A stretch of DNA of 64,000 bases from an uncultured Gammaproteobacteria bacterium (GTDB taxonomy: Bacteria; Pseudomonadota; Gammaproteobacteria; Ga0077536): positions 15,107-79,106 of the forward strand of contig CAXBJY010000004.1 in assembly GCA_963976285.1 (NCBI GenBank), written 5' to 3'. Each line of letters begins with the position of its first letter. Within the stretch, counting starts at the first letter, position 1. The notes under the pieces are model-generated. The model made no database searches. It was given only the letters and a program-made list of their open reading frames with translations, and was not told the origin of the DNA. This document shows positions 29,625-41,568 of the stretch, piece after piece. A program made the translations under genes and the position numbers.

Positions 29625-32534
29625 GTGAGGTTGTCGAGTTTGTCCGACCCAGTTTTCGTTCCCGGTCAGCGCTGGGTCAGCAATACCGAATCAGAACTGG
29701 GTCTCGGGATCGTCGTCGAGAACGAGAACCGGCGTGTCACGCTCAGTTTTCCCGCGGCCGGTGAACGCCGTGTCTACGCCACCGACAATGCCCCGTTGAG
29801 CCGGGTGATCTACGACGTTGGCGAGACCATCACGGATGATGAAGGCCTCACGATCAAGGTCCAGCAGCGCCACGACAACAAGGGCTGCATTATTTACGGC
29901 GGCGCCACCGCGGACGGTGAGCCCGCGATCATCGCGGAGCTGGATCTCGACAGTTTCGTCCAGTTCAGCCGCCCGCTCGATCGCCTGTTTGCCGGTCAGA
30001 TCGACAAGAACAACAGTTTTATCCTGCGTACGGAAACGCTCGCGCATCAGCATCGGCACGCGCGTTCGTCCGCTTACGGCCTGCTTGGCCCGCGCGTGCA
30101 ACTGCTGCCGCACCAGTTCTATATCGCCCAGCAAGTGGCCGCCCGCTACCATCCGCGCGTGCTGCTCGCCGACGAAGTGGGTCTCGGCAAGACGATCGAG
30201 GCCGGCCTGATCGTGCACCAGCAGCTGCTGTGCGGACGCGCGAAGCGTGTTTTGATCATCGTGCCCGACAGTCTCGTGCACCAGTGGCTCGTCGAGATGC
30301 TGCGACGTTTCAATCTGCATTTCACGATCCTCGACGAGGAAACGTGCGTCGCGATCGAGACCGGCGGCGACGAGGACGCGGAGGAAACAAGCGACGGCGA
30401 GGCCGAAAACCCGTTCGACAGCGCGCAACTCGTGCTCGCGGGCCTGTCCCTGCTCGTCGACAACCCGGCACGTCGCGACCAGGCCCTCGCCGCGAGCTGG
30501 GACCTGATGGTCGTCGATGAAGCGCATCACCTGAGTTGGCACGAGGACGCCGTGAGCCCGGCCTACGCCGCGGTCGAGGCACTCGCGCGCGCGGCCGCCG
30601 GCCTCATCCTGATCACCGCAACCCCGGAGCAACTCGGGCTCGAAGGACATTTTGCCCGCCTGCGCCTGCTCGACCCCGACCGTTACCACGACCTCGCGGA
30701 ATTTCGCGCCGAGGAAGAACGCTATCGTCCCGTGGCCGAACTGATCACGGCGCTGCGTGATGCGGACCCGGCCACCGATTTCACGGTCGACGACAGCCTG
30801 CCGCGGCGACTCGCGGAATTTCTCGATCCCGCGACGATTGCAACGCTTGTCGCGGCGTCCCCGGCTGAACGTGGCGGTTTGATCGACGAGGTGATCCGCA
30901 ACCTGCTCGATCGCCAGGGCACCGGTCGCGTGTTGTATCGCAACTGCCGCGACACGGTCGCCGGGTTTCCCGCACGTGAGCTGCACGCTTACAGGCTCGC
31001 GCCATCGGCGGCCTACGGCGCGGCGGCGGCCACGGCCCCGGTCGAACTGTGCCTGTTGCCCGAAACCCTGCTCGGCGATACGTGGATCGCGACCGATCCG
31101 CGCGTCGCCTGGCTCGCGGACTGGCTGGCCGCGCACCGCGGCGAGAAAGTGCTCGTGATCTGTGCCCGCGCGGCCACGGCGATCGCGCTCGAAGAACATT
31201 TGCGCGTGCGCTGTGGCATCCGCTCGGCCGTGTTCCATGAAGGTCTCGGACTCGTGCAGCGCGACCGCGCGGCGGCCTATTTCGCCGACGAACAGGAAAA
31301 TGCCGAAGCCCTGATCTGCTCGGAGATCGGCAGCGAGGGGCGGAACTTCCAGTTCGCTCATCACCTCGTGCTGTTCGATCTGCCGCTGAATCCGGATTTG
31401 CTGGAACAGCGGATCGGTCGTCTCGATCGCATCGGTCAGCGGCACACGGTACAGATCCACGTCCCGGTACTCGACAACACCGCGACCGCCGTGCTGCTGC
31501 GCTGGTTCCACGAAGGCCTCGATGCCTTCGAGTCCGTGTTTCCGGCCGGACGCATTCTGTTCGATGAATTCGAGCCGTCGCTGCGCGCGTGCCTTGCCGC
31601 GCCGACGGACACGCCGGCGATCGACGAACTCATCGCCGCGACGCAGGCGCATGCCCAGGCAACGCGTGAAGCGCTGAGCCGGGGTCGCGACCGCCTGCTC
31701 GAACTGAATTCCTACGACGATGCCCAGGCGATGTCCGTTATCGAGGCGCTCAGCGAAGCAGCGCGTAAACTCGAACTCGCCGATTACATGGAAGGTGTGT
31801 TCGATTTCTTCGGCGTCGATCAACAACCGCACGGGCCGCTCAGCGTCGTCGTACATCCGAGCGACCAGATGCTGTGTCACAGTTTTCCGGGTTTACCCGA
31901 GGGCGGGATCACGGGCACCTACGATCGCATCGAGGCGCTGACCCACGAGGACATGCATTTCCTCACGTGGGAACATCCGATGGTCACCGGTGCCATGGAC
32001 ATGATGCTGTCCGGGGAGTTCGGTAACGCAACGCTGTGCACGTTGAAAGCGCCGTTTCTGAAACCGGGTACGCTGCTGCTCGAAGCGATCTTCGTCGTCA
32101 GCTGTCCCGGGCCGCGACACCTGCAGCTGTCGCGCTATCTGCCGCAGGCGAGCCTGCGGATCGTGGTCGATCGCGACCGTCGTGATCTGACCTCGGTGCT
32201 GACCCCCGAACGGATCGACGGCATCATCGAGACGATCAAGAAACATGTCGCCCAGGAAGTCGCGAAACATGCGCGCGCCGAGATCACCGCGATGGCGGCA
32301 CGCGCGACGGAAATTGCCGAAGCCGCGCTCGGCGGTTTGCGCGCCGAGGCGGTGCAGCACGCGCGCGATGCGCAGGCCGCGGAACTCGCGCGGCTCGAAG
32401 CGCTCGCGGCGGTGAATCCGAACATTCGTGCCGAAGAGATCGAATTTCGGCGTGACTACGCAAGCATGCTCGTCGAAGTTCTCGGCAATGCAACGGTACG
32501 CCTCGACGCCGTTCGGGTTGGCCTCGCGACCTAG
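29625..32534 (+). CDS. rapA: RNA polymerase-associated SNF2 ATPase RapA (HepA)
   Basis: N-terminus GQRWVSNTESELGLGIVV and LLADEVGLGKTIEAGLIVHQQLL..VPDSLVHQWLVEMLRRFNL align with E. coli RapA. DEAH box (VVDEAHHL). Confidence 0.95.
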   Translation: MRLSSLSDPVFVPGQRWVSNTESELGLGIVVENENRRVTLSFPAAGERRVYATDNAPLSRVIYDVGETITDDEGLTIKVQQRHDNKGCIIYGGATADGEPAIIAELDLDSFVQFSRPLDRLFAGQIDKNNSFILRTETLAHQHRHARSSAYGLLGPRVQLLPHQFYIAQQVAARYHPRVLLADEVGLGKTIEAGLIVHQQLLCGRAKRVLIIVPDSLVHQWLVEMLRRFNLHFTILDEETCVAIETGGDEDAEETSDGEAENPFDSAQLVLAGLSLLVDNPARRDQALAASWDLMVVDEAHHLSWHEDAVSPAYAAVEALARAAAGLILITATPEQLGLEGHFARLRLLDPDRYHDLAEFRAEEERYRPVAELITALRDADPATDFTVDDSLPRRLAEFLDPATIATLVAASPAERGGLIDEVIRNLLDRQGTGRVLYRNCRDTVAGFPARELHAYRLAPSAAYGAAAATAPVELCLLPETLLGDTWIATDPRVAWLADWLAAHRGEKVLVICARAATAIALEEHLRVRCGIRSAVFHEGLGLVQRDRAAAYFADEQENAEALICSEIGSEGRNFQFAHHLVLFDLPLNPDLLEQRIGRLDRIGQRHTVQIHVPVLDNTATAVLLRWFHEGLDAFESVFPAGRILFDEFEPSLRACLAAPTDTPAIDELIAATQAHAQATREALSRGRDRLLELNSYDDAQAMSVIEALSEAARKLELADYMEGVFDFFGVDQQPHGPLSVVVHPSDQMLCHSFPGLPEGGITGTYDRIEALTHEDMHFLTWEHPMVTGAMDMMLSGEFGNATLCTLKAPFLKPGTLLLEAIFVVSCPGPRHLQLSRYLPQASLRIVVDRDRRDLTSVLTPERIDGIIETIKKHVAQEVAKHARAEITAMAARATEIAEAALGGLRAEAVQHARDAQAAELARLEALAAVNPNIRAEEIEFRRDYASMLVEVLGNATVRLDAVRVGLAT

Positions 32535-32963
32535 CAGCCTGTCGGACTTAGGGGCTGTTGATCTTTCGCGGAGCGCCACTGCTGAGCCCCTGTTTGTGGA
32601 CCGGCAAGGCAGAGAGAGCGTGATTTAGCCGTAGCTAAATGAGCGAACGATAACGCCGCCGGACGCGAACAGGGGCTCAGCCCGACGGGTTACCCGTGAA
32701 AACCCGTCACTCGTCGTTGCAGCTCGCTCATTTGGAACAACCAAACTACGCTCGCTGCGCCTCGATTGACAAATTTTCACGGGTAACAGTGGCGCTCCGC
32801 GAAAGATCAACAGCCCCTAGGAACAATCTGCTGCGCCGGCGGGACAGCGGCGCAAAAACGCGCGATTTTTCGTCACGTAGCACCACTATGCTCCTCAAAA
32901 TCGCACGTTTTTGCACTCGCTCTCCCACCTTGCTCGCTACGATTGCCTAAGTCCGACAGGCTG
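32535..32963. repeat. 429-bp nested inverted-repeat element (MITE/REP-like or structured RNA) beginning at the rapA stop codon
   Basis: Perfect 18-bp terminal inverted repeats: cagcctgtcggacttagg (32535-52) and cctaagtccgacaggctg (32946-63). A 29-bp subterminal IR: 32553-81 versus 32787-815. Three internal hairpins: 32581-94/32668-81, 32689-702/32774-87, and 32858-76/32897-915. No ORF with protein-like composition. Confidence 0.7.
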
Positions 32964-33000
32964 CCAGGCGCCGGCGGGTAGCTGAGTCACCGGTGCGGGC

Positions 33001-33510
33001 TCAGTCGAGCGCGCGCCACAGCGGCCGTGGCCACAGCGAGGGTTCGCCCGGTGCACACGGCATGAATCCGTGCGCCGTGAAAAATGCGCTCGATTCGCGC
33101 CACGCGCGCGTTGCGAGGCCAGCGTAACCCTCCGCCCGCGCGAGTGCCTCGACATCCGCGAGCAACCGCGCACCGATCCCCGTACGCTGTCGTCGCGGCA
33201 GCACATAGAGTCCGTGCAACGTCAGCAAGCGGCGATTTTCCGGCGGGTCGTGCGGATCCGCGGGTTCCGTGCAGCTGAAGCCGACCGCGGTTCCGCCGTC
33301 GGTGATGAGTCGGGCGCGCATCGTCCGCACGTCCATCGCGTCGTAGCGCAGGCTCGGCAGCGACAGGCGCAATACCCGGGCCGACAGTCCCCAGCCGCTG
33401 ACCGCGGCTGCGAGAATGCCGTTGATCGTATCGAGGTCGGCCACGTCCGCGTCGCGGATCACGCTGCGCGAATGCGCCGGGGCGGTGGCCGCTCGCGGGC
33501 TCGTTGGCAT
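33001..33510 (-). CDS. GNAT family N-acetyltransferase
   Basis: RRQRTGIGARLL matches the acetyl-CoA-binding R/QxxGxG/A motif. 169 aa. Confidence 0.75.
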   Translation of the reverse strand: MPTSPRAATAPAHSRSVIRDADVADLDTINGILAAAVSGWGLSARVLRLSLPSLRYDAMDVRTMRARLITDGGTAVGFSCTEPADPHDPPENRRLLTLHGLYVLPRRQRTGIGARLLADVEALARAEGYAGLATRAWRESSAFFTAHGFMPCAPGEPSLWPRPLWRALD

Positions 33511-33564: not shown

Positions 33565-35745
33565 TCACTGCACCTCGAACGTCACCGTCGCGGTACGGGT
33601 CGGCGGGGTGCCGTCGTTGTGCTCGATTTCCGCAAACGTGGTGAACCTGCCGCGCGCAAGCGGCCACGCATATGTACCGCCCGAGGTCGTGTCCGCGGCT
33701 TCACCATTGACAAACCAGTGCACCCGGCGCGCCGTATCGGCACCCGCGAGTTCGAACTGGAAAACCTCGTGCTCATCCGGGATCCGCGGATCCATCGCGA
33801 GACGCAGTCCGTTGATCGGTTTGCGCAGTCGCAATGGCGCATTCGTCGTCGGCAATGCCCGCGGTGCAAGCCCGCGAACGAACCATTCGTCGCGCGTAGC
33901 GCACGGCGCGTCGGGCGGCAGGCCCGTTTCGCGACACACCGTGCGCTGCACGAGATTCGGGCTGCGGTACAGGGCGCCGCGTTCGCGGTGGCGATTCAGC
34001 TCGCGCAAGGTCGCGCGCAGCACGAGAGCGGGTCCGGTCGAACCGGTGACGTCGTGCATCGCCGTGTAGTCGAGATTGCCCATCCACACCCCGACCGTGT
34101 AGCGGTCGTCGTAACCGATCGCCCAGGCGTCGCGATAGTCACTCGAGGTGCCGGTCTTTACCGCCGTCGGTGCCGCGAAATTCAGGATCGAATAAGGCCC
34201 GAACTCGAGTTCGCGTGCATGTGGATCGGACAGGATATCGGCGATCAGGCTCGCGACATCCGCGGAGAAGATGCGCGCGCCCGGCGCCGTATCGCCGGCG
34301 AGCAGGCGCAGCGGTGCGAACTCGCCCATGCGCGCGAGCACGGTATAGGCCTGCACGAGTTCGAACAGCGTTACTTCGCCGTTACCGAGGGCAATGCCGT
34401 CGCCATACACGTTCGGATGTTCCGTCAGACTGTTGATACCGAGTTCGCGCAGACGCTCGATGAACGTTGCCGCGCCGACCAATTGCGCCACGCGTACGGC
34501 GGGTGTGTTCAGCGAATTGCCGAGCGCTTCGCGCACGGACACGGGACCGTAATAGCGGTGCGAGTAATTCGCCACCGCGTGGAGACCAAGACCGACGTTT
34601 TGTTCGAGCGGCGCGTCGTCGATGACGCTTGCGGCACTCAGGCCCTGCGCCAGGGCCTCGGTATACAGCAGCGGTTTCAGCGCCGAGCCCGGCTGGCGCC
34701 GGACCGTGACGGCATCGATTGCGGTAAACGGTTTGCCAGCCTGTCCGGCGTGACCGACGACCCAGGCGAGCACTTCACCGCGGGTGTGGTCGACCGCGAG
34801 CACGGCGGCGTTGTGGACGTGGCGGCCGGCGAGATCGGCGAGGCGACGGTCGAGGATTTGCTGCACGCTGCGCTGCACGGTCAGATCGAGCGTCGTGGAC
34901 GTGATCCCGTCGCTCCGCGCGCCGGGTTCGCGCTCGTTTAAATAACGCAGGAAATGCGCGACGTTCACGGGCCTTGCGACGCGCCGCGGCGACAGGTTCT
35001 GGGCGGCGATCTCCGCGCCGTCGAGCGCGAGTTCGCCGCGCCGGTGCAGGGTGTGGGCGACCGCGCGAATGCCGCGTTCGAGTGCCGGCGTGCGTGAGCG
35101 GGGATCGAACCAGCGCGGCGCGCGAACGATGACGGCGAGCGCGAGCAGTTCCTTTTCGTTCAGGGTCGCGAGATCCCGATCGAAGTAATACCGCGCGGCC
35201 TGCACGACGCCGCGCCGGCGTGCGGCGTACGGCACCTGGTTCAGATAGAACTCGAGGATCGCGGGCTTGCCATGCGCGCGTTCGAGCGCCGCGGCCTCGA
35301 AGCCTTCGAGCCAGCGCGACCAGGGCGTGCGCGCGCGCGGGTGCAGCATGCGCACGACCTGTTCGCTGATCGTACTCGCACCGCGCACTACCCGACCGGC
35401 GCGCAGGTTCGCGAGCGCCGCCGCCGCGCGCGCGGTCCAGTCGACCCCGTCGTGTGTCGCGAAGCGCCGATCTTCGGCGGCGATGAACGCAGCGCTCAGC
35501 AGTTGCGGCGCCCGGTGCAGTGCGATCCGGTCGTGGATGTTCCACCGGTTCTCGTACGTCGCGTTGAGACGTTCACCGTGACGATCGGCGTAGACGATCC
35601 GCCGCGTGTGCGCGGACCCGGCGTCGGGCAATACCGTCGGGATCGGTCTCAACGCGAGCCCGGTGGCGATGGTCAGCGCGCCGGCGGCGACGGCAAAACC
35701 ACCGACGATTATGCGCAAGGCGAGGGCACGATGGCGCTTGTGCAT
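33565..35745 (-). CDS. pbpC: penicillin-binding protein 1C (bifunctional transglycosylase/transpeptidase)
   Basis: GT51 motifs (EDRRFATHDGVD, RGASTISEQ) plus a transpeptidase module. The C-terminal PbpC domain lies immediately downstream of the A2M gene. Confidence 0.9.
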   Translation of the reverse strand: MHKRHRALALRIIVGGFAVAAGALTIATGLALRPIPTVLPDAGSAHTRRIVYADRHGERLNATYENRWNIHDRIALHRAPQLLSAAFIAAEDRRFATHDGVDWTARAAAALANLRAGRVVRGASTISEQVVRMLHPRARTPWSRWLEGFEAAALERAHGKPAILEFYLNQVPYAARRRGVVQAARYYFDRDLATLNEKELLALAVIVRAPRWFDPRSRTPALERGIRAVAHTLHRRGELALDGAEIAAQNLSPRRVARPVNVAHFLRYLNEREPGARSDGITSTTLDLTVQRSVQQILDRRLADLAGRHVHNAAVLAVDHTRGEVLAWVVGHAGQAGKPFTAIDAVTVRRQPGSALKPLLYTEALAQGLSAASVIDDAPLEQNVGLGLHAVANYSHRYYGPVSVREALGNSLNTPAVRVAQLVGAATFIERLRELGINSLTEHPNVYGDGIALGNGEVTLFELVQAYTVLARMGEFAPLRLLAGDTAPGARIFSADVASLIADILSDPHARELEFGPYSILNFAAPTAVKTGTSSDYRDAWAIGYDDRYTVGVWMGNLDYTAMHDVTGSTGPALVLRATLRELNRHRERGALYRSPNLVQRTVCRETGLPPDAPCATRDEWFVRGLAPRALPTTNAPLRLRKPINGLRLAMDPRIPDEHEVFQFELAGADTARRVHWFVNGEAADTTSGGTYAWPLARGRFTTFAEIEHNDGTPPTRTATVTFEVQ

Positions 35746-35748
35746 CGC

Positions 35749-38700
35749 TCAGTCCTCCACCACGAGCGTCGCCGGCAGGCCGCGCCCGTACACATCGGGG
35801 TCGTACATCTCTTCGGCACGGACCGCCGGTGCGGCAAACTCGCCCGCGGCGATCGCCTGCGCGGTGTACGCGAGGTGATAGTTGCCGGGTGGCAGGTAGT
35901 CGGCGTAGAAGCGCGCGGCGTCGAAGCGCAGTTCCCGGTGATAGAAACTCGCGAAATACGCGCCGTAAGTCGTCCACGTATCGTGCGTGAAATACCACGA
36001 GCCGGCGCCGAACCGCTCGCCGGCTTTCGCCGCGTCCACCAACGAACTCGTCGCGAGGTCGGTGTTGACGGGTTCAAGGCCGCCGGGAACGGGATCTTCG
36101 ACGACGACGAAATGGCGCGCGCCGGCGACGGATACGAACAAATCGACGCGCACGATTTCGCCCCGGGCGATGCGGACCGGCTTGTCCAGGCGTTGCCACT
36201 GGCCGTTACGTTCGACGGTGTATTCACGCCGGATCTCGATCCCGGCGTTTGTCCGTGCGGCGGCGTCGGCTTTGCGGTCGTAAGCGAGCCGCGCCGAGTA
36301 ATACAGGCGGCCCGGGCCGTCTTTCGTCAGCGACATCGTTGCGCGCCGTCCCGCATCGGTGGCGTTCAGCGATCGGCCGAGCGTGACGGCGGGATCGCGC
36401 AAGTCCCCGAATGCCGCGCGGCCGAGCGTTTCGCGGTCGAGCGTGACGGCGATTCTCATATCCGGGGCCGTGTTCTCGAAGTGCCGCGCATAATCGACGA
36501 GCGCGTTCATACAGAACACGTTTTCCTGGGTATTTTCGAAGTGCGTACGTTGACCACGGCTTTGCGTGATCGCGCGCACGAGCTTGAACGGGATCTGATC
36601 GAGTCCCGGCAGTGCCGGTACGCTCGTGTTTGCGTCGACGAGCCCGGACAGGATCGCGCAGTTCGCGCGCAACGGGCTCGCGAGCAGGTGTTCGAATCCG
36701 TCGTCGAGAGTTTCACTGAACGTGAACTTGCCGCCGGATTGATCCGCGTGCGCAAGAATCTTCGCCACGGTTCCCGCGCGCAGGTCCTGCGGCACGTCCG
36801 GGGTCGCAAGTACGGCGCGCAGGTAATGCGCCTTGCCGAACAGATCCATCGCATCGACGTGCCGCGCGTAACGCGCGATGTCCTGCGCGGTCAGCGCGCC
36901 GTCGCCGGCGAGTGCCGCGAGCGCGACCGCGCGCACGCTCGACGCCATCCCGGCAGTGTAGAAGCCCGGGAACTCGTCGCGCCGCAACAGGCGCAACAGA
37001 TATTCCCGCAGCCGTGCAGCCACCGTTGCCGGTACGTCGTGACCATCGCGGCGCAACCAGTTGAATGCGATCGCTGTGTACGCCGACAGGTACGGGCTGA
37101 CGTGGGCGTTCGATGCCTGCCAGTACGCCATGCCGCCGTTCGGCGCCTGGAAATCAGCCGCCGCGGCGAGCGCGCGCGTGATATCGCCGTCCGGATCCGT
37201 CCACGCGACCGTGTCGGCGAGGTATGCGTGCAATTCACCGTAGGCCGACGCCGCGACGGCTTTCGTGAGTTGCTGTTCCCAGCACCGGTGCGGGTAATCC
37301 TTCAGGTAGTTGAAGGCGCCGTCGAGATTGCCGATCACGCTCGGTGACAACACCGCCTCGATGCGGCCGACATCCGTGTGGATATCGTCCGGTATCGCGA
37401 ACTTTTCCGTCACGCTCGCGGCAACGGTCGTGCCGTAACTCGCGGCCGTTGCCGGCGCCCGGATCCGGGTCACCGGCACGACGTGCTCGATCGCGTCCGT
37501 ATCGAGGGCATCGCCGGCGCGCGCAACGAAGCGTAACTCCCCGTCACGTACGGTCGTCAGTGGCACGCTGAATGGCACGCGATCATACGGCGCGACGGTG
37601 AGCACGCGGTTCGTGACCGCTGCCGCGCTGTCGGCGAGCGGCCCTTCGACATCGACGGAGACCGTGATCTCGCGCGGCGATGCGGTCCGGTTCATGACCG
37701 TAAAGCCGGCGCGCGCGCGATCCCCGGCGCGCAACTGATTCGGCATGACCGGCCGGATCTCGGTTGGCCGGTTTACCTTGAACGTCGCCTCGCCGAGACC
37801 CATGCGCGCATCCGGGGTAACGCCGAGCGCGAGGATGCGCCAGCCGGTGAGATTGTCCGGCACCTCGAACTCGATCTCCGCGGTGCCGTCCGGTCCGGCC
37901 ATGAGCGACGGATTCCAGTAACTGACGAACTTGAACAGATTGCGCAGGGCGGCGCCGTCCGCGCCGCCACCGCCGCCGGGGTTCGCGCCTTTGCTCACGA
38001 AATTCTGCCGTCCGACGAGGCGCGCGAGCAGGCTGTAGTTGTTCACATCGAGGCCGTCGAGCCGGTTGAAGCCGGCGTAGGGATCGTAGTAAGTCGCGCC
38101 ATTGCGGTTCAGCGCGAGCACGGCCTCGTCGACCACGGCGACCGCGAATTCCACCGGCGGATTTTCCCCCGGCGCGCGCGGCACGCGAACTCTTGCACGG
38201 ACATGGTCGCGCGGTTTCACGGTTTTCGCGTTCGTCGTCACTTCGACCGCGAGCCGTGCACCCGGATCGTTCACGTCGACGGCGAGGTAGCCGATGCGGT
38301 AACCCGGCTTGCCGAGATCGACCCGGCCGGGTTCCGGCGGCGCGGCCACCCGGGGTGAAACGACGACAACGGAAACGTAGAAACCCGGCAGATAATCCGC
38401 TTTGATCGGCACCTCGATCACCGGCGTGCTCGTCGCCAGTTCGGTCGTCCAGCTGTCGATGACACCATAGCGTTCGATCGTGACGAGTGCCCGCGCACCG
38501 GGGTAGGGGTTCTGCAGCAGGAAGCGCGCCGTGTCGCCGATCGCATGCGACGATTTCTCGGCGATGATCGGCAGGCTTGCATCGTTCGACTGATCCCATG
38601 CGACGTAGCCGGACCCTGTCACCCAGCCGTAGGCGGTCGTGTGATGCTCGCGGCCGGCACTGTCGAGCGTACTCGCGACGAACTGGTAATACCCGGCCTG

Positions 38701-41568
38701 GTCCGGCACGAATTCACACGTTGCGCCGGCGGCGGTCGTCTTCAGCTGGCACGCGGACTCGGCGACCCAGTTCATCACGTTTCGGATCAGGTACGCATTG
38801 CCCGGACCTTTCACGCGCGCGGTCTTCACTTCACGCCGGTTGATGATGATCGCAACCGGGGCGTTCTCGCGGATTTCGCCATGGCGATCGACGACGAGGG
38901 TGTCGAGGCGGGCGGGTTCTCCCGCGGCGTACAGCCATTGCGTCTGCTTCAGCCCGACGAACACATCGCGCCCCGCGTACGTCGCTTGCGTGGTCGCGGC
39001 AACGCGCTTGCCGCGATCGTCGCGCACCGCCGCTTCCACTTGCACGGTGCCGTAGTAGATATCCGACTGCGGCAGTTCGATCCGGGTGTCGAACCGGCCG
39101 TGTTCGTCGAGCTTCGCGTGGGTATCGGCGAGCGCGCGGGTGCCGGCGGCTTCGCTATCGCTGTTACTGCCGAACACGAAGCCTTCCGCGCGCGGATTCT
39201 CCGGGGTAAACGCACGCGCATGCAGGCGCGCATTGATCCGCACGTCGGCGTGGGTAAACGGTCCGCCGGCATACAGCGTGGCGCGCGAGTCGATCCGCAT
39301 CGCATCACCGGCAGCGAAATCCGTGCCATTGAGTTCCGCGCTCACCTTGAACGGCGACGGCGTGAAATCGCTGACGAGTATGGACAAGGCCTGCCACGAA
39401 AAGCGGGTCGCGGTGTCCGCCGCCGGGTTTGCCGGACGTAACTGGAACCGATACCAGCCGACGGCGCCGGATGCGGGTATGGTGAAGCGTCCGTCGAGCG
39501 CGCCGAAGCGGTTCAGGGTGATGCCATCGCGTTCGAACACGGTCTTGCCCTGCGGATCGGTAACGCTCAAGACATAGTCGCCGGGGGCCGGCTGAACCCA
39601 GTGCCGGTTACTCTGCTCACGCACGTAGATCTTGTAGTCGACGGCGTCGCCGAGCTTGTACACACCCTGGGCCGTCGTGCCCCACGCGTGCGTGTGGCCG
39701 CCACGCTTGCGGATATGCGCATATACCCCACCACCGCGCACCGCGTAGTCGTAGTCGATCGGCAGCAGCGCGATGTCGCCGTCACGTTCGACCTGCGCGA
39801 ACAACTGCACGTCATCGCGGTTGTAGATCAGCGCGAGTTCGGGGTCGAGCGTTGCCAGGCCCGGCAGTTGTGCGATGCCATCGGTGTCCGTCTGCGCGCC
39901 GACCCCGAGCGGCTGCAGGGACGCGAGCCGCTCGACCTTGCCCGTCCACAACGTGACATTCGCGTCGTTCACGGGTTCGCCGGTGGCAAACGTCGTGACC
40001 CATGCGAGTGAATTGAAGTGACCCAGCTTGTAGTGCACCTGGTACGGCGTGACCTGCGCGAGGATCCGCGGATCGTGATGCCAGCCCGGCGGCACGGGCC
40101 GCGGTCGCAGACGCGCGAACACGGCGCCACTCGATTGCGCGAGCAGACGCCGTATTTCGAGCGGGCGCGCATACGCGATGTCCGTCGCCGGACTCACGTC
40201 GAGCCGTTCGCGCAAGCCGCTACCCGTCATCGCCGTACCGAGCCGGTCGTATTCGACATCGATGTGTTCGAGATTCGTCACATACAGCGGTACGTCGCTG
40301 TCGACGCCCTGTTCGAGCACCGCATTCGTGAGACCGACGGTGAGCTTTGGTTCGCGATGACTCGTGTGGAATGAAAATGCGACGGGCGCCGGCAGCTTGC
40401 GCCCGAACTCGTCCGAGAACGCCGTCGGATCCAGCGTGACCGCATAGCGCCGATCGGCGAGCAGGTAAACCGGCAACCGGCGCGCGTAAACGCGATCGCG
40501 CCCGTGCGGCGCGCCGAGCTCGCTCCAGTCATGCAGGTTTTGCCACGGGTCGAAATCCTTGCGCTCGCCGTCGAGCGCCGGCGTGAACGTGGCGTGATCC
40601 CGGATCACGGAATTCAGCACCGGCGCCGAGAACAGCAGGGCGACGGATTTCAGTGGCGCGCAGCGCCGCGCGGACGCATCCGCGGACTGCAGCTCCGCGA
40701 GCAGCAGATCGGCAACCCGTGCACTGCCTTTCGGCGTGCAGCGCAGGCCGAGAAAACGGAATTCGGGATACGTGTCGAAACCGACGATGGTGCGCTGTTC
40801 GATCCCGCGTTCAGGTCCCGCGGCGCCCGTCAGTCCGGGGCTGATGTCGAGTGCGATCGTCGCATCCAGCGGCAGTTCGCTGATCGGTTCGACGACCCAG
40901 GCACGGCGCGGGGTCACGTCGTCGTCGCCGGCCGGGTCCCGCGCTGCGGGCGGGTCCGGTGCGTAGGCCCAGCGCGGCGCACGTCTTGGTACGTCGTCGG
41001 GATACGCGACGAGCGCAACCTTGCGGCCCTTCGTTGTGAACGCCAGCGCGCGTTCCACCGAAGCGCGCGTTACCGCCTGGTTGAACGCGACCCGAATCAG
41101 CGGCGTGCCCGGCGACAGCCAGTTGACGAAGTGCGCGTAGGTGGCTTTCGGTCGCGCCGTCGTGAACGTATGTGTCACGGCGGTGGCGAGACGGGCGCCG
41201 TCCGGTGTTTCGAATCCGGGCGCTACGGTCACGTTGTAGCGGGTTGCAAGCCGGAGCCGGTGCGCGTCGCCGAGTTCGCAGGCGAGCGCGCTCGTGTTCA
41301 GCCACCGCCACTCGCAGCCGGGTTGCGGTGAAATCGTGATCGGGATTTCTTCCGCCGTTCGATCCATGCGCCCGATCGGTACGACGGCGCGGTCGAACTG
41401 AAACACGATTTGCCGCCCGCCCGGCACCTCGTCGCCGGCCGGCGTGATCCGGCTGAGCCGCAACGCCTGTTCGGCAGCACTCGCGCCCGGGCACGCGAGC
41501 AGGCCGAGTACGAGCGCGCAGAGCACGCGCGGAAAAATGACTGAGCGACGGTCGAATCGGTGTTTCAT
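35749..41568 (-). CDS. bacterial alpha-2-macroglobulin family lipoprotein (YfhM-like)
   Basis: 1939 aa. Lipobox LLAC in the signal peptide. Thioester-region motif CWEQ. Conserved pairing with pbpC. Confidence 0.9.
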   Translation of the reverse strand: MKHRFDRRSVIFPRVLCALVLGLLACPGASAAEQALRLSRITPAGDEVPGGRQIVFQFDRAVVPIGRMDRTAEEIPITISPQPGCEWRWLNTSALACELGDAHRLRLATRYNVTVAPGFETPDGARLATAVTHTFTTARPKATYAHFVNWLSPGTPLIRVAFNQAVTRASVERALAFTTKGRKVALVAYPDDVPRRAPRWAYAPDPPAARDPAGDDDVTPRRAWVVEPISELPLDATIALDISPGLTGAAGPERGIEQRTIVGFDTYPEFRFLGLRCTPKGSARVADLLLAELQSADASARRCAPLKSVALLFSAPVLNSVIRDHATFTPALDGERKDFDPWQNLHDWSELGAPHGRDRVYARRLPVYLLADRRYAVTLDPTAFSDEFGRKLPAPVAFSFHTSHREPKLTVGLTNAVLEQGVDSDVPLYVTNLEHIDVEYDRLGTAMTGSGLRERLDVSPATDIAYARPLEIRRLLAQSSGAVFARLRPRPVPPGWHHDPRILAQVTPYQVHYKLGHFNSLAWVTTFATGEPVNDANVTLWTGKVERLASLQPLGVGAQTDTDGIAQLPGLATLDPELALIYNRDDVQLFAQVERDGDIALLPIDYDYAVRGGGVYAHIRKRGGHTHAWGTTAQGVYKLGDAVDYKIYVREQSNRHWVQPAPGDYVLSVTDPQGKTVFERDGITLNRFGALDGRFTIPASGAVGWYRFQLRPANPAADTATRFSWQALSILVSDFTPSPFKVSAELNGTDFAAGDAMRIDSRATLYAGGPFTHADVRINARLHARAFTPENPRAEGFVFGSNSDSEAAGTRALADTHAKLDEHGRFDTRIELPQSDIYYGTVQVEAAVRDDRGKRVAATTQATYAGRDVFVGLKQTQWLYAAGEPARLDTLVVDRHGEIRENAPVAIIINRREVKTARVKGPGNAYLIRNVMNWVAESACQLKTTAAGATCEFVPDQAGYYQFVASTLDSAGREHHTTAYGWVTGSGYVAWDQSNDASLPIIAEKSSHAIGDTARFLLQNPYPGARALVTIERYGVIDSWTTELATSTPVIEVPIKADYLPGFYVSVVVVSPRVAAPPEPGRVDLGKPGYRIGYLAVDVNDPGARLAVEVTTNAKTVKPRDHVRARVRVPRAPGENPPVEFAVAVVDEAVLALNRNGATYYDPYAGFNRLDGLDVNNYSLLARLVGRQNFVSKGANPGGGGGADGAALRNLFKFVSYWNPSLMAGPDGTAEIEFEVPDNLTGWRILALGVTPDARMGLGEATFKVNRPTEIRPVMPNQLRAGDRARAGFTVMNRTASPREITVSVDVEGPLADSAAAVTNRVLTVAPYDRVPFSVPLTTVRDGELRFVARAGDALDTDAIEHVVPVTRIRAPATAASYGTTVAASVTEKFAIPDDIHTDVGRIEAVLSPSVIGNLDGAFNYLKDYPHRCWEQQLTKAVAASAYGELHAYLADTVAWTDPDGDITRALAAAADFQAPNGGMAYWQASNAHVSPYLSAYTAIAFNWLRRDGHDVPATVAARLREYLLRLLRRDEFPGFYTAGMASSVRAVALAALAGDGALTAQDIARYARHVDAMDLFGKAHYLRAVLATPDVPQDLRAGTVAKILAHADQSGGKFTFSETLDDGFEHLLASPLRANCAILSGLVDANTSVPALPGLDQIPFKLVRAITQSRGQRTHFENTQENVFCMNALVDYARHFENTAPDMRIAVTLDRETLGRAAFGDLRDPAVTLGRSLNATDAGRRATMSLTKDGPGRLYYSARLAYDRKADAAARTNAGIEIRREYTVERNGQWQRLDKPVRIARGEIVRVDLFVSVAGARHFVVVEDPVPGGLEPVNTDLATSSLVDAAKAGERFGAGSWYFTHDTWTTYGAYFASFYHRELRFDAARFYADYLPPGNYHLAYTAQAIAAGEFAAPAVRAEEMYDPDVYGRGLPATLVVED

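Follow-up and report, generated by a model that had tools for sequence, protein, structure and literature searches.

The 429-bp block that directly follows the rapA stop codon in the window, i.e., the whole 64-kb stretch of DNA that was analysed, consists, with high confidence, of two MITEs, non-autonomous DNA transposons that belong to different families, one lying within the other. In the proposed order of events, the 160-nt outer element, designated Y, would have inserted first, in a pre-existing CTAG holding the rapA amber stop. The 267-bp inner element, designated X, would then have inserted at a TA inside the left terminal repeat of Y and duplicated this TA. The branched palindrome would represent the sum of both sets of terminal repeats and of the internal hairpins of each family. 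Movement in trans would be provided by an IS1182-family DDE transposase in the case of Y and by an ISSod6-like IS5-family DDE transposase in the case of X.

The anatomy of both units is that of MITEs. At 160 and 267 nt, Y and X are shorter than approximately 500 bp and have no conserved coding capacity, and their terminal repeats (18–19 nt in Y, 31 nt in X) are perfect. X has a TA at either end, here and across its family; Y lies between CTAG and CCAG in the window, and between two CTAG copies in its family. Within genomes elsewhere, members of both families occur as dispersed multiple copies. The ends are shared with autonomous insertion sequences (L094, L117, and L124 for Y; L190 and L191 for X), and orthologous sites are polymorphic for the presence of the block (L174 versus L176, L175, and L179). 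A sequence-only reading of the same DNA had offered a MITE as one of its alternatives; the repeats, target duplications, dispersed copies, autonomous insertion sequences, and empty sites bear this out in kind, but two unrelated elements are present rather than one. The search for further copies which that reading recommended returned no second X or Y within the 64-kb window, whereas both families proved to be multi-copy, with target duplications, in other genomes. No IS1182 or IS5 transposase was found within the 64-kb window, and a BLAST search of the whole 441-nt block against plasmids gave no match. The features of the locus are collected in Table 1.

Table 1. Coordinates of the nested elements and adjoining genes in the window.
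Feature	Position	Strand	Description
rapA	29625..32534	+	RNA polymerase-associated SNF2 ATPase; stop TAG 32532-32534
CTAG	32531..32534		Y target site and left flanking copy; includes the rapA amber stop
Y left end	32535..32550	+	First 16 nt of terminal repeat, CAGCCTGTCGGACTTA
TA	32549-50		Left copy of X target duplication, within Y left end
X	32551..32817	+	267 bp; probable MITE of ISSod6-like IS5-family type
X terminal repeats	32551-81 and 32787-817		31 nt, perfect
X arm A	32581-32681
X arm B	32689-32787
TA	32818..32819		Right copy of X target-site duplication
Y remainder	32820..32963	+	144 nt; hairpin 32852-69/32897-914; right terminal repeat 32946-63
CCAG	32964..32967		Decayed right CTAG copy, one T-to-C change; CTAG in other copies
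GNAT acetyltransferase	33001..33510	-	Convergent flanking gene; Pfam Acetyltransf_1, _7, _10

Inverted repeats and predicted fold of the block

The block contains two nested pairs of inverted repeats. The outer pair, earlier described as perfect 18-bp terminal repeats, is indeed perfect, over 19 nt (32534-32552 with 32946-32964), but the final GG of its left copy (32551-52) belongs to X; the pair looked perfect because X by coincidence begins with GG, the two bases that complete the left repeat of Y. The subterminal repeat, reported as 29 bp long, is present and is contained in a pair that is perfect over 33 nt (32549-32581 with 32787-32819). Both internal 14-bp hairpins were likewise found, with perfect stems at 32581-94/32668-81 and 32689-702/32774-87. 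A further stem of 18 nt, with 94% complementarity, lies in a 124-bp segment that had been taken for an insert with a hairpin of its own; the hairpin is real, but the segment is the body of the outer element, and the actual insert is the 267-bp X.

Folding predictions gave −266.8 kcal/mol for the plus strand (z = −16.3) and −293.4 kcal/mol for the minus strand (z = −18.5) relative to dinucleotide shuffles, and none of 100 shuffles folded as well as the block; the G+C content of the window is 64%. Such symmetry could alternatively stem from a REP/BIME-type palindrome, from an integron site resembling attC, or from chance, and the block is palindromic and located between convergent genes, as are many REP/BIME clusters. 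REP units are imperfect palindromes of 20–40 nt associated with RAYT transposases; the units found here are 160 and 267 nt long and have long terminal repeats and target duplications, so neither their size nor this anatomy suits the REP-like label proposed previously. Chance is excluded by the fold z-scores together with hundreds of homologous copies elsewhere. The core of attC sites reads GTTRRRY, and the attC reading was rejected because the ends of the block read CTTAGG instead. Overall, we assign this group of explanations a practically negligible probability.

Outer element Y carries IS1182-type ends

Y is a non-coding element of 160 nt, now divided into two segments, with terminal repeats of 18/19 nt (GCAGCCTGTCGGACTTAGG). 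Its terminal 18-mer (CAGCCTGTCGGACTTAGG) was scanned against one genome per species and was detected in at least 120 stretches of species-representative genomes, which include MAGs and complete chromosomes. Among the matches listed, the hosts belong to Beta- and Gammaproteobacteria (Pseudomonadota), Verrucomicrobiota, Lentisphaerota, Acidobacteriota, and Myxococcota, and several single assemblies contain 4–7 stretches each. Pairing plus- and minus-strand matches of the terminal repeat yielded 54 Y units among the matches listed, with a modal length of 161–164 nt including the outer G and C. The flanks are equally regular: among the matches listed, CTA precedes the initial G of the 19-nt pattern in 37 of 44 paired copies, and TAG follows its final C in 41 of 44, this G and C being common to the 19-nt pattern and the flanking CTAG. 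When X and one TA are deleted from the window, exactly 160 nt remain, which is the modal length of Y. The 144-nt remainder of Y (32820-32963) is 84–87% identical over approximately 150 nt to Y copies in the MAG JAQCEL01, and it can be aligned over its full length with 20 other copies of about 160 nt, in which the hairpin arms covary.

Longer units of 1617–1621 bp (L094, L117, and L124) possess the same ends and CTAG flanks as Y and encode a 449-aa protein. This protein scored 304.5 bits against the NCBIfam IS1182 transposase model NF033551 (cut-off 270) and matched the Pfam families DUF772 and DDE_Tnp_1/_1_6; its closest plasmid-borne relatives, annotated as IS1182 family, are 57% identical. 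Since its ends and flanks are shared with these transposase-coding 1.62-kb units, Y is most likely a MITE that uses IS1182-type ends.

The observation that the block contains only short, overlapping ORFs was confirmed. The possibility that Y encodes a small protein was considered, given a frame (...LSPTGC*) that crosses the terminal repeat and ends at the flanking TAG. It was rejected because this frame is disrupted in at least 5 of 21 copies: a stop occurs within 7–13 codons in 4 of them, and indels shift the frame in others.

Other size classes with unrelated interiors share the IS1182-type repeat, among them one of 119 nt (L024, L031, and L084; Opitutaceae MAG) and one of about 205 nt that contains a second, internal repeat-like copy (L027, L097, and L113). 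In a single contig (L039), two Y copies are located 286 nt apart (2408-2567 and 2694-2853).

Seven independent metagenome assemblies (L002–L006, L008, and L010), from strains 99.2–99.7% identical to the window, end at window position 32910, exactly 55 nt inside the outer end of Y. This is where a de Bruijn graph with k = 55 is expected to stop, as the unique flank meets a repeat. The positions of these contig breaks suggest that Y is multi-copy in the host populations. Y is a systematic breakpoint for short-read assemblies; more broadly, MAGs from at least five phyla contain the IS1182-type 18-nt repeat, which repeatedly breaks assemblies of this kind.

Inner element X carries ISSod6-like ends

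Intact Y copies read ...GGACT-TA-GGAACAATC, and the corresponding junctions in the window read GGACT-TA-[GGGGCTGTTGATC...GATCAACAGCCCC]-TA-GGAACAATC; therefore, the 267-bp X was inserted at that TA, which was duplicated. The terminal repeats of X read GGGGCTGTTGATCTTTCGCGG... and its terminal 20-mer, scanned against metagenome sequences, was recovered in 43 stretches, 5 of which are chance matches in coding sequence and 38 are not. Members of the family are most often 264 nt long, and variants measure 174–195 and 311–325 nt. They are flanked by TA at both ends, the base preceding TA being mostly C or T. An AT-rich consensus of X matched 17 plasmid or chromid records from Pseudoalteromonas, Vibrio, and Catenovulum, at up to 13 places in one record (a Pseudoalteromonas replicon), and nearly all of these matches are unannotated. 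The GC-rich variant was recovered from no site other than the orthologous rapA locus (window, L001, L165, and L174).

Neither the 43 metagenome loci nor two partial plasmid matches contained an autonomous partner of X. The end of an IMG/VR 'viral' contig (L188, 11247-11370) contains the X terminal repeat followed by the start of a transposase (MPRQMLTD...), and BLAST with this end hit genes of Alteromonas, Vibrio, and Shewanella that are annotated as IS5-family transposases. Full insertion sequences with X-like ends were obtained at 885 bp (L190) and 879 bp (L191, S. oneidensis MR-1), the latter annotated with an IS5-like transposase of the ISSod6 family. In both, the terminal repeat reads GGGTCTGTTGATCTTTCG and the element is bordered by TA, and the transposase of the ISSod6-like elements scored 278.6 bits against the IS5-family model NF033580.

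Some X copies carry an extra hairpin-forming insertion of about 47–61 nt in the loop of arm A or B (L139, L144, L148, L150, and L167, 311–325 nt; L183, 311 nt). These extra segments may be further nested mini-insertions or expansion segments.

The lengths of the two families also bear on whether the 429-bp block could be one composite MITE that moves as a whole on its outer 19-nt repeats. Both of these repeats are intact, with the GG of X restoring the left repeat of Y, and an IS1182 transposase could in principle still act on the composite. However, exact-end scans returned the composite only at the orthologous rapA locus (L001, L165, and L174), and the family units measure about 160 and 264 nt, not 429. 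We therefore consider a composite element exceedingly improbable and retain the reading of two separate MITEs, one inside the other.

Insertion at the rapA stop codon

The gene upstream of the block is confirmed as rapA by its domain content, with Pfam matches to RapA_C (E = 3e-124), two Tudor domains, SNF2, and Helicase_C. Gene callers place its start 15 nt downstream, giving 964 aa rather than the 969-aa ORF, and a 964-aa rapA gene is called in the identical contig L001. Similarity of RapA places the host among the uncultured marine gammaproteobacteria, the nearest named relatives, Oceanicoccus and Spongiibacteraceae, being about 57% identical.

Comparison of related rapA loci resolved both occupied and empty sites. 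The same nested block, with one substitution within X, follows a rapA whose product is 98% identical (L174). In relatives with RapA 92% (L176, ...ACCTAGGACATC...), 93% (L175, ...CGTAGCAAC...), and 80% identical (L179), the element is absent; the last of these has the empty site GCGAC-CTAG-GCGAAC with a single CTAG, and the window reads GCGAC-CTAG-[Y::X]-CCAG-GCGCC. Judged from these alignments, the block appears to be a recent insertion, absent from relatives with 80–93% identical RapA. The empty sites of the relatives indicate that the TAG stop and its CTAG context predate the insertion, and the RapA protein is unchanged because its stop codon is retained in the left of the two target copies.

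The position of the block had been described as a fusion to the rapA stop codon. The contact is real, but it is best understood as a by-product of the targeting of CTAG by Y. CTAG is strongly depleted in the window (16 sites versus approximately 211 expected from base composition, about 13-fold), and in 10 of 32 CTAG site-strands of the window the TAG is the stop of an open frame of 100 codons or more. Among the matches listed, 51 of 139 Y ends abut a frame of at least 100 codons, versus 21 and 11 in two control frames, and this is about the rate expected from the host's own CTAG sites. X ends abut a long ORF in only 3 of 61 cases; therefore, the association with stop codons belongs to Y alone. 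The contact thus arises because Y targets CTAG, a depleted tetranucleotide of which many surviving sites are amber stops. Where CTAG survives in good part as C+TAG, elements that target it land exactly on stop codons. Knowledge of rapA itself is unaltered by these findings.

The GNAT gene, located downstream of the block between rapA and the PBP1C gene, varies among relatives: L175 (5895-6073) and L179 (5904-5956) lack it, and L176 has a 157-aa version with a different spacer. On the minus strand of the window (33565-41568), a 1939-aa alpha-2-macroglobulin-like gene is followed immediately by the gene for the PBP1C-type penicillin-binding protein, and this gene pair is kept in every relative recovered.

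Conserved internal hairpins

Covariation was analyzed in 13 X sequences and in 21 Y copies of about 160 nt, with slid-register controls. Standard pairs occupy 93.7% of cells in X (37–44% in slid controls) and 91.1% in Y (29–44%). Pairs changed at both sides number 60 of 96 in X, versus 15–27 in the controls, and 24 of 44 in Y, versus 10–17. The covariation scores reached 0.361 for X and 0.373 for Y, with the highest slid controls at 0.093 and 0.154, respectively, and in X none of 500 shuffles attained the observed values. The similarity of the window X to the AT-rich copies extends well beyond the ends: unpaired motifs are retained, and the stems have changed in a compensatory manner. The fold of X is kept across GC-rich and AT-rich Gammaproteobacteria. 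This compensatory conservation of hairpins in X and Y is not explained by a model of MITEs that considers terminal repeats alone.

Mismatches in X are balanced (G-U 66, A-C 60) and show no strand bias, which indicates a symmetric constraint at the DNA level rather than a strand-specific RNA. In Y, A-C mismatches outnumber G-U mismatches (66 versus 18), although 26 of the A-C cells come from two doubtful pairs; the excess would favour a fold of the strand opposite the aligned sense, i.e., opposite rapA. Genes enter Y in the sense that gives A-C in 10 of 22 copies, plus rapA in the window, versus 5 in the other sense.

These data also bear on whether the block is primarily a structured RNA, such as an sRNA derived from the rapA 3'UTR, or a bidirectional terminator, whose repeats would result from a selected fold; the sequence-only reading had named both. 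The extremely stable predicted fold of both strands, the compensatory changes that keep the X and Y hairpins, and the A-C excess of Y on the side opposite rapA are all in keeping with such a role. Against it, X is free of strand bias, the A-C excess of Y is weakened by the two doubtful pairs and gene orientation points the other way, and the copies lie in any orientation to neighbouring genes. A search of Rfam 15 returned only chance-level miRNA/snoRNA matches for the window copy and nothing for X and Y copies at seven other loci. Terminator-like sites are at chance level (1 found versus 1.2 expected): the search for an intrinsic bidirectional terminator found one weak site, on the minus strand only, and the big stems have no T-runs following them. 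The block is moreover missing at the rapA loci with 80–93% identical RapA, and the sequence is already accounted for by its terminal repeats and target duplications and by the full-length insertion sequences that share its ends. Taken together, this evidence makes a primary RNA or terminator function very unlikely.

A kissing or pseudoknot contact between two complementary 9-mers in the hairpin loops had been suggested as well. Of these, aaatgagcg is at 32637-45 as given, and cgctcattt occupies 32725-33, shifted rightward by one base from the position reported. All nine positions pair only in the window copy, compared with 4–7 of 9 in 12 other X members; across the X family the proportion of paired cells is 68%, a value matched in 383 of 500 shuffles, and no covariation is seen, which speaks against the contact. 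Even the reverse strand of X gives a match to the X profile (E ~1e-13), reflecting its pseudo-palindromy, and the complementarity is better read as a remnant of this overall symmetry.

Covariation of the hairpins may reflect selection for fold-back, either in transposition or for host tolerance. It may also stem from template-switch correction of imperfect palindromes, a process that homogenises hairpin arms without selection, and the uniformly perfect stems of the window copy fit such correction at least as well as selection. It is conceivable, though in our judgment unlikely, that X and Y are mobile structured modules whose multi-hairpin folds are held by selection rather than being decaying remnants. 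If so, they could act as portable insulators, mRNA-end stabilisers, or protein-binding sites, and the CTAG-targeting Y family would dock such modules onto amber stop codons. As internal folds are kept in both MITE families, the choice between selection and palindrome-correcting mutation is worth testing.

Comparison with known mobile elements

Bacterial MITEs such as Correia/NEMIS of Neisseria, ERIC, and RUP are of small size, lack coding capacity, and carry terminal inverted repeats together with a short target duplication of the TA type. Present in multiple copies, mostly in intergenic regions or at gene ends, they can fold into long hairpins and share their ends with autonomous insertion sequences. 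X and Y have this general anatomy in common with them; they differ in that their sequences are unrelated to these families and that two families are nested here. The literature found on IS1182-derived, Pseudoalteromonas, and ISSod6 MITEs describes neither family, so the X and Y families may be undescribed, although the kind of element is well known. For annotation, the value of the result is that a palindrome resembling a new RNA or a new element resolves into two ordinary MITEs with identifiable parent IS families.

Nested transposon insertion is routine, and as in other such cases, the presence of X in Y with its own target duplication makes the order of events readable. The present case is distinguished only by the first two bases of X, which restore the terminal repeat of Y.

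With ISSod6 and its Alteromonas and Vibrio relatives (IS5 family), X has in common the terminal ~18 nt GGG[G/T]CTGTTGATCTTTCG, and about 30 nt at the left end as well as the TA flanks are shared with the ISSod6-like elements. In contrast to these elements, X has no ORF within its 264–267 nt and contains a conserved two-arm hairpin interior of about 200 nt that is absent from the insertion sequences. Similarly, the 18–19-nt repeats and CTAG flanks of the 1.62-kb IS1182-family elements are common to Y, whereas Y encodes no transposase and, apart from the repeats, shows no relationship between its interior and the ends of the full-length element. Within the IS1182 family, ISPsy36 is reported to insert at the 4-bp palindrome GGCC (PMC8027508), a palindromic target of the same style as the CTAG used by Y.
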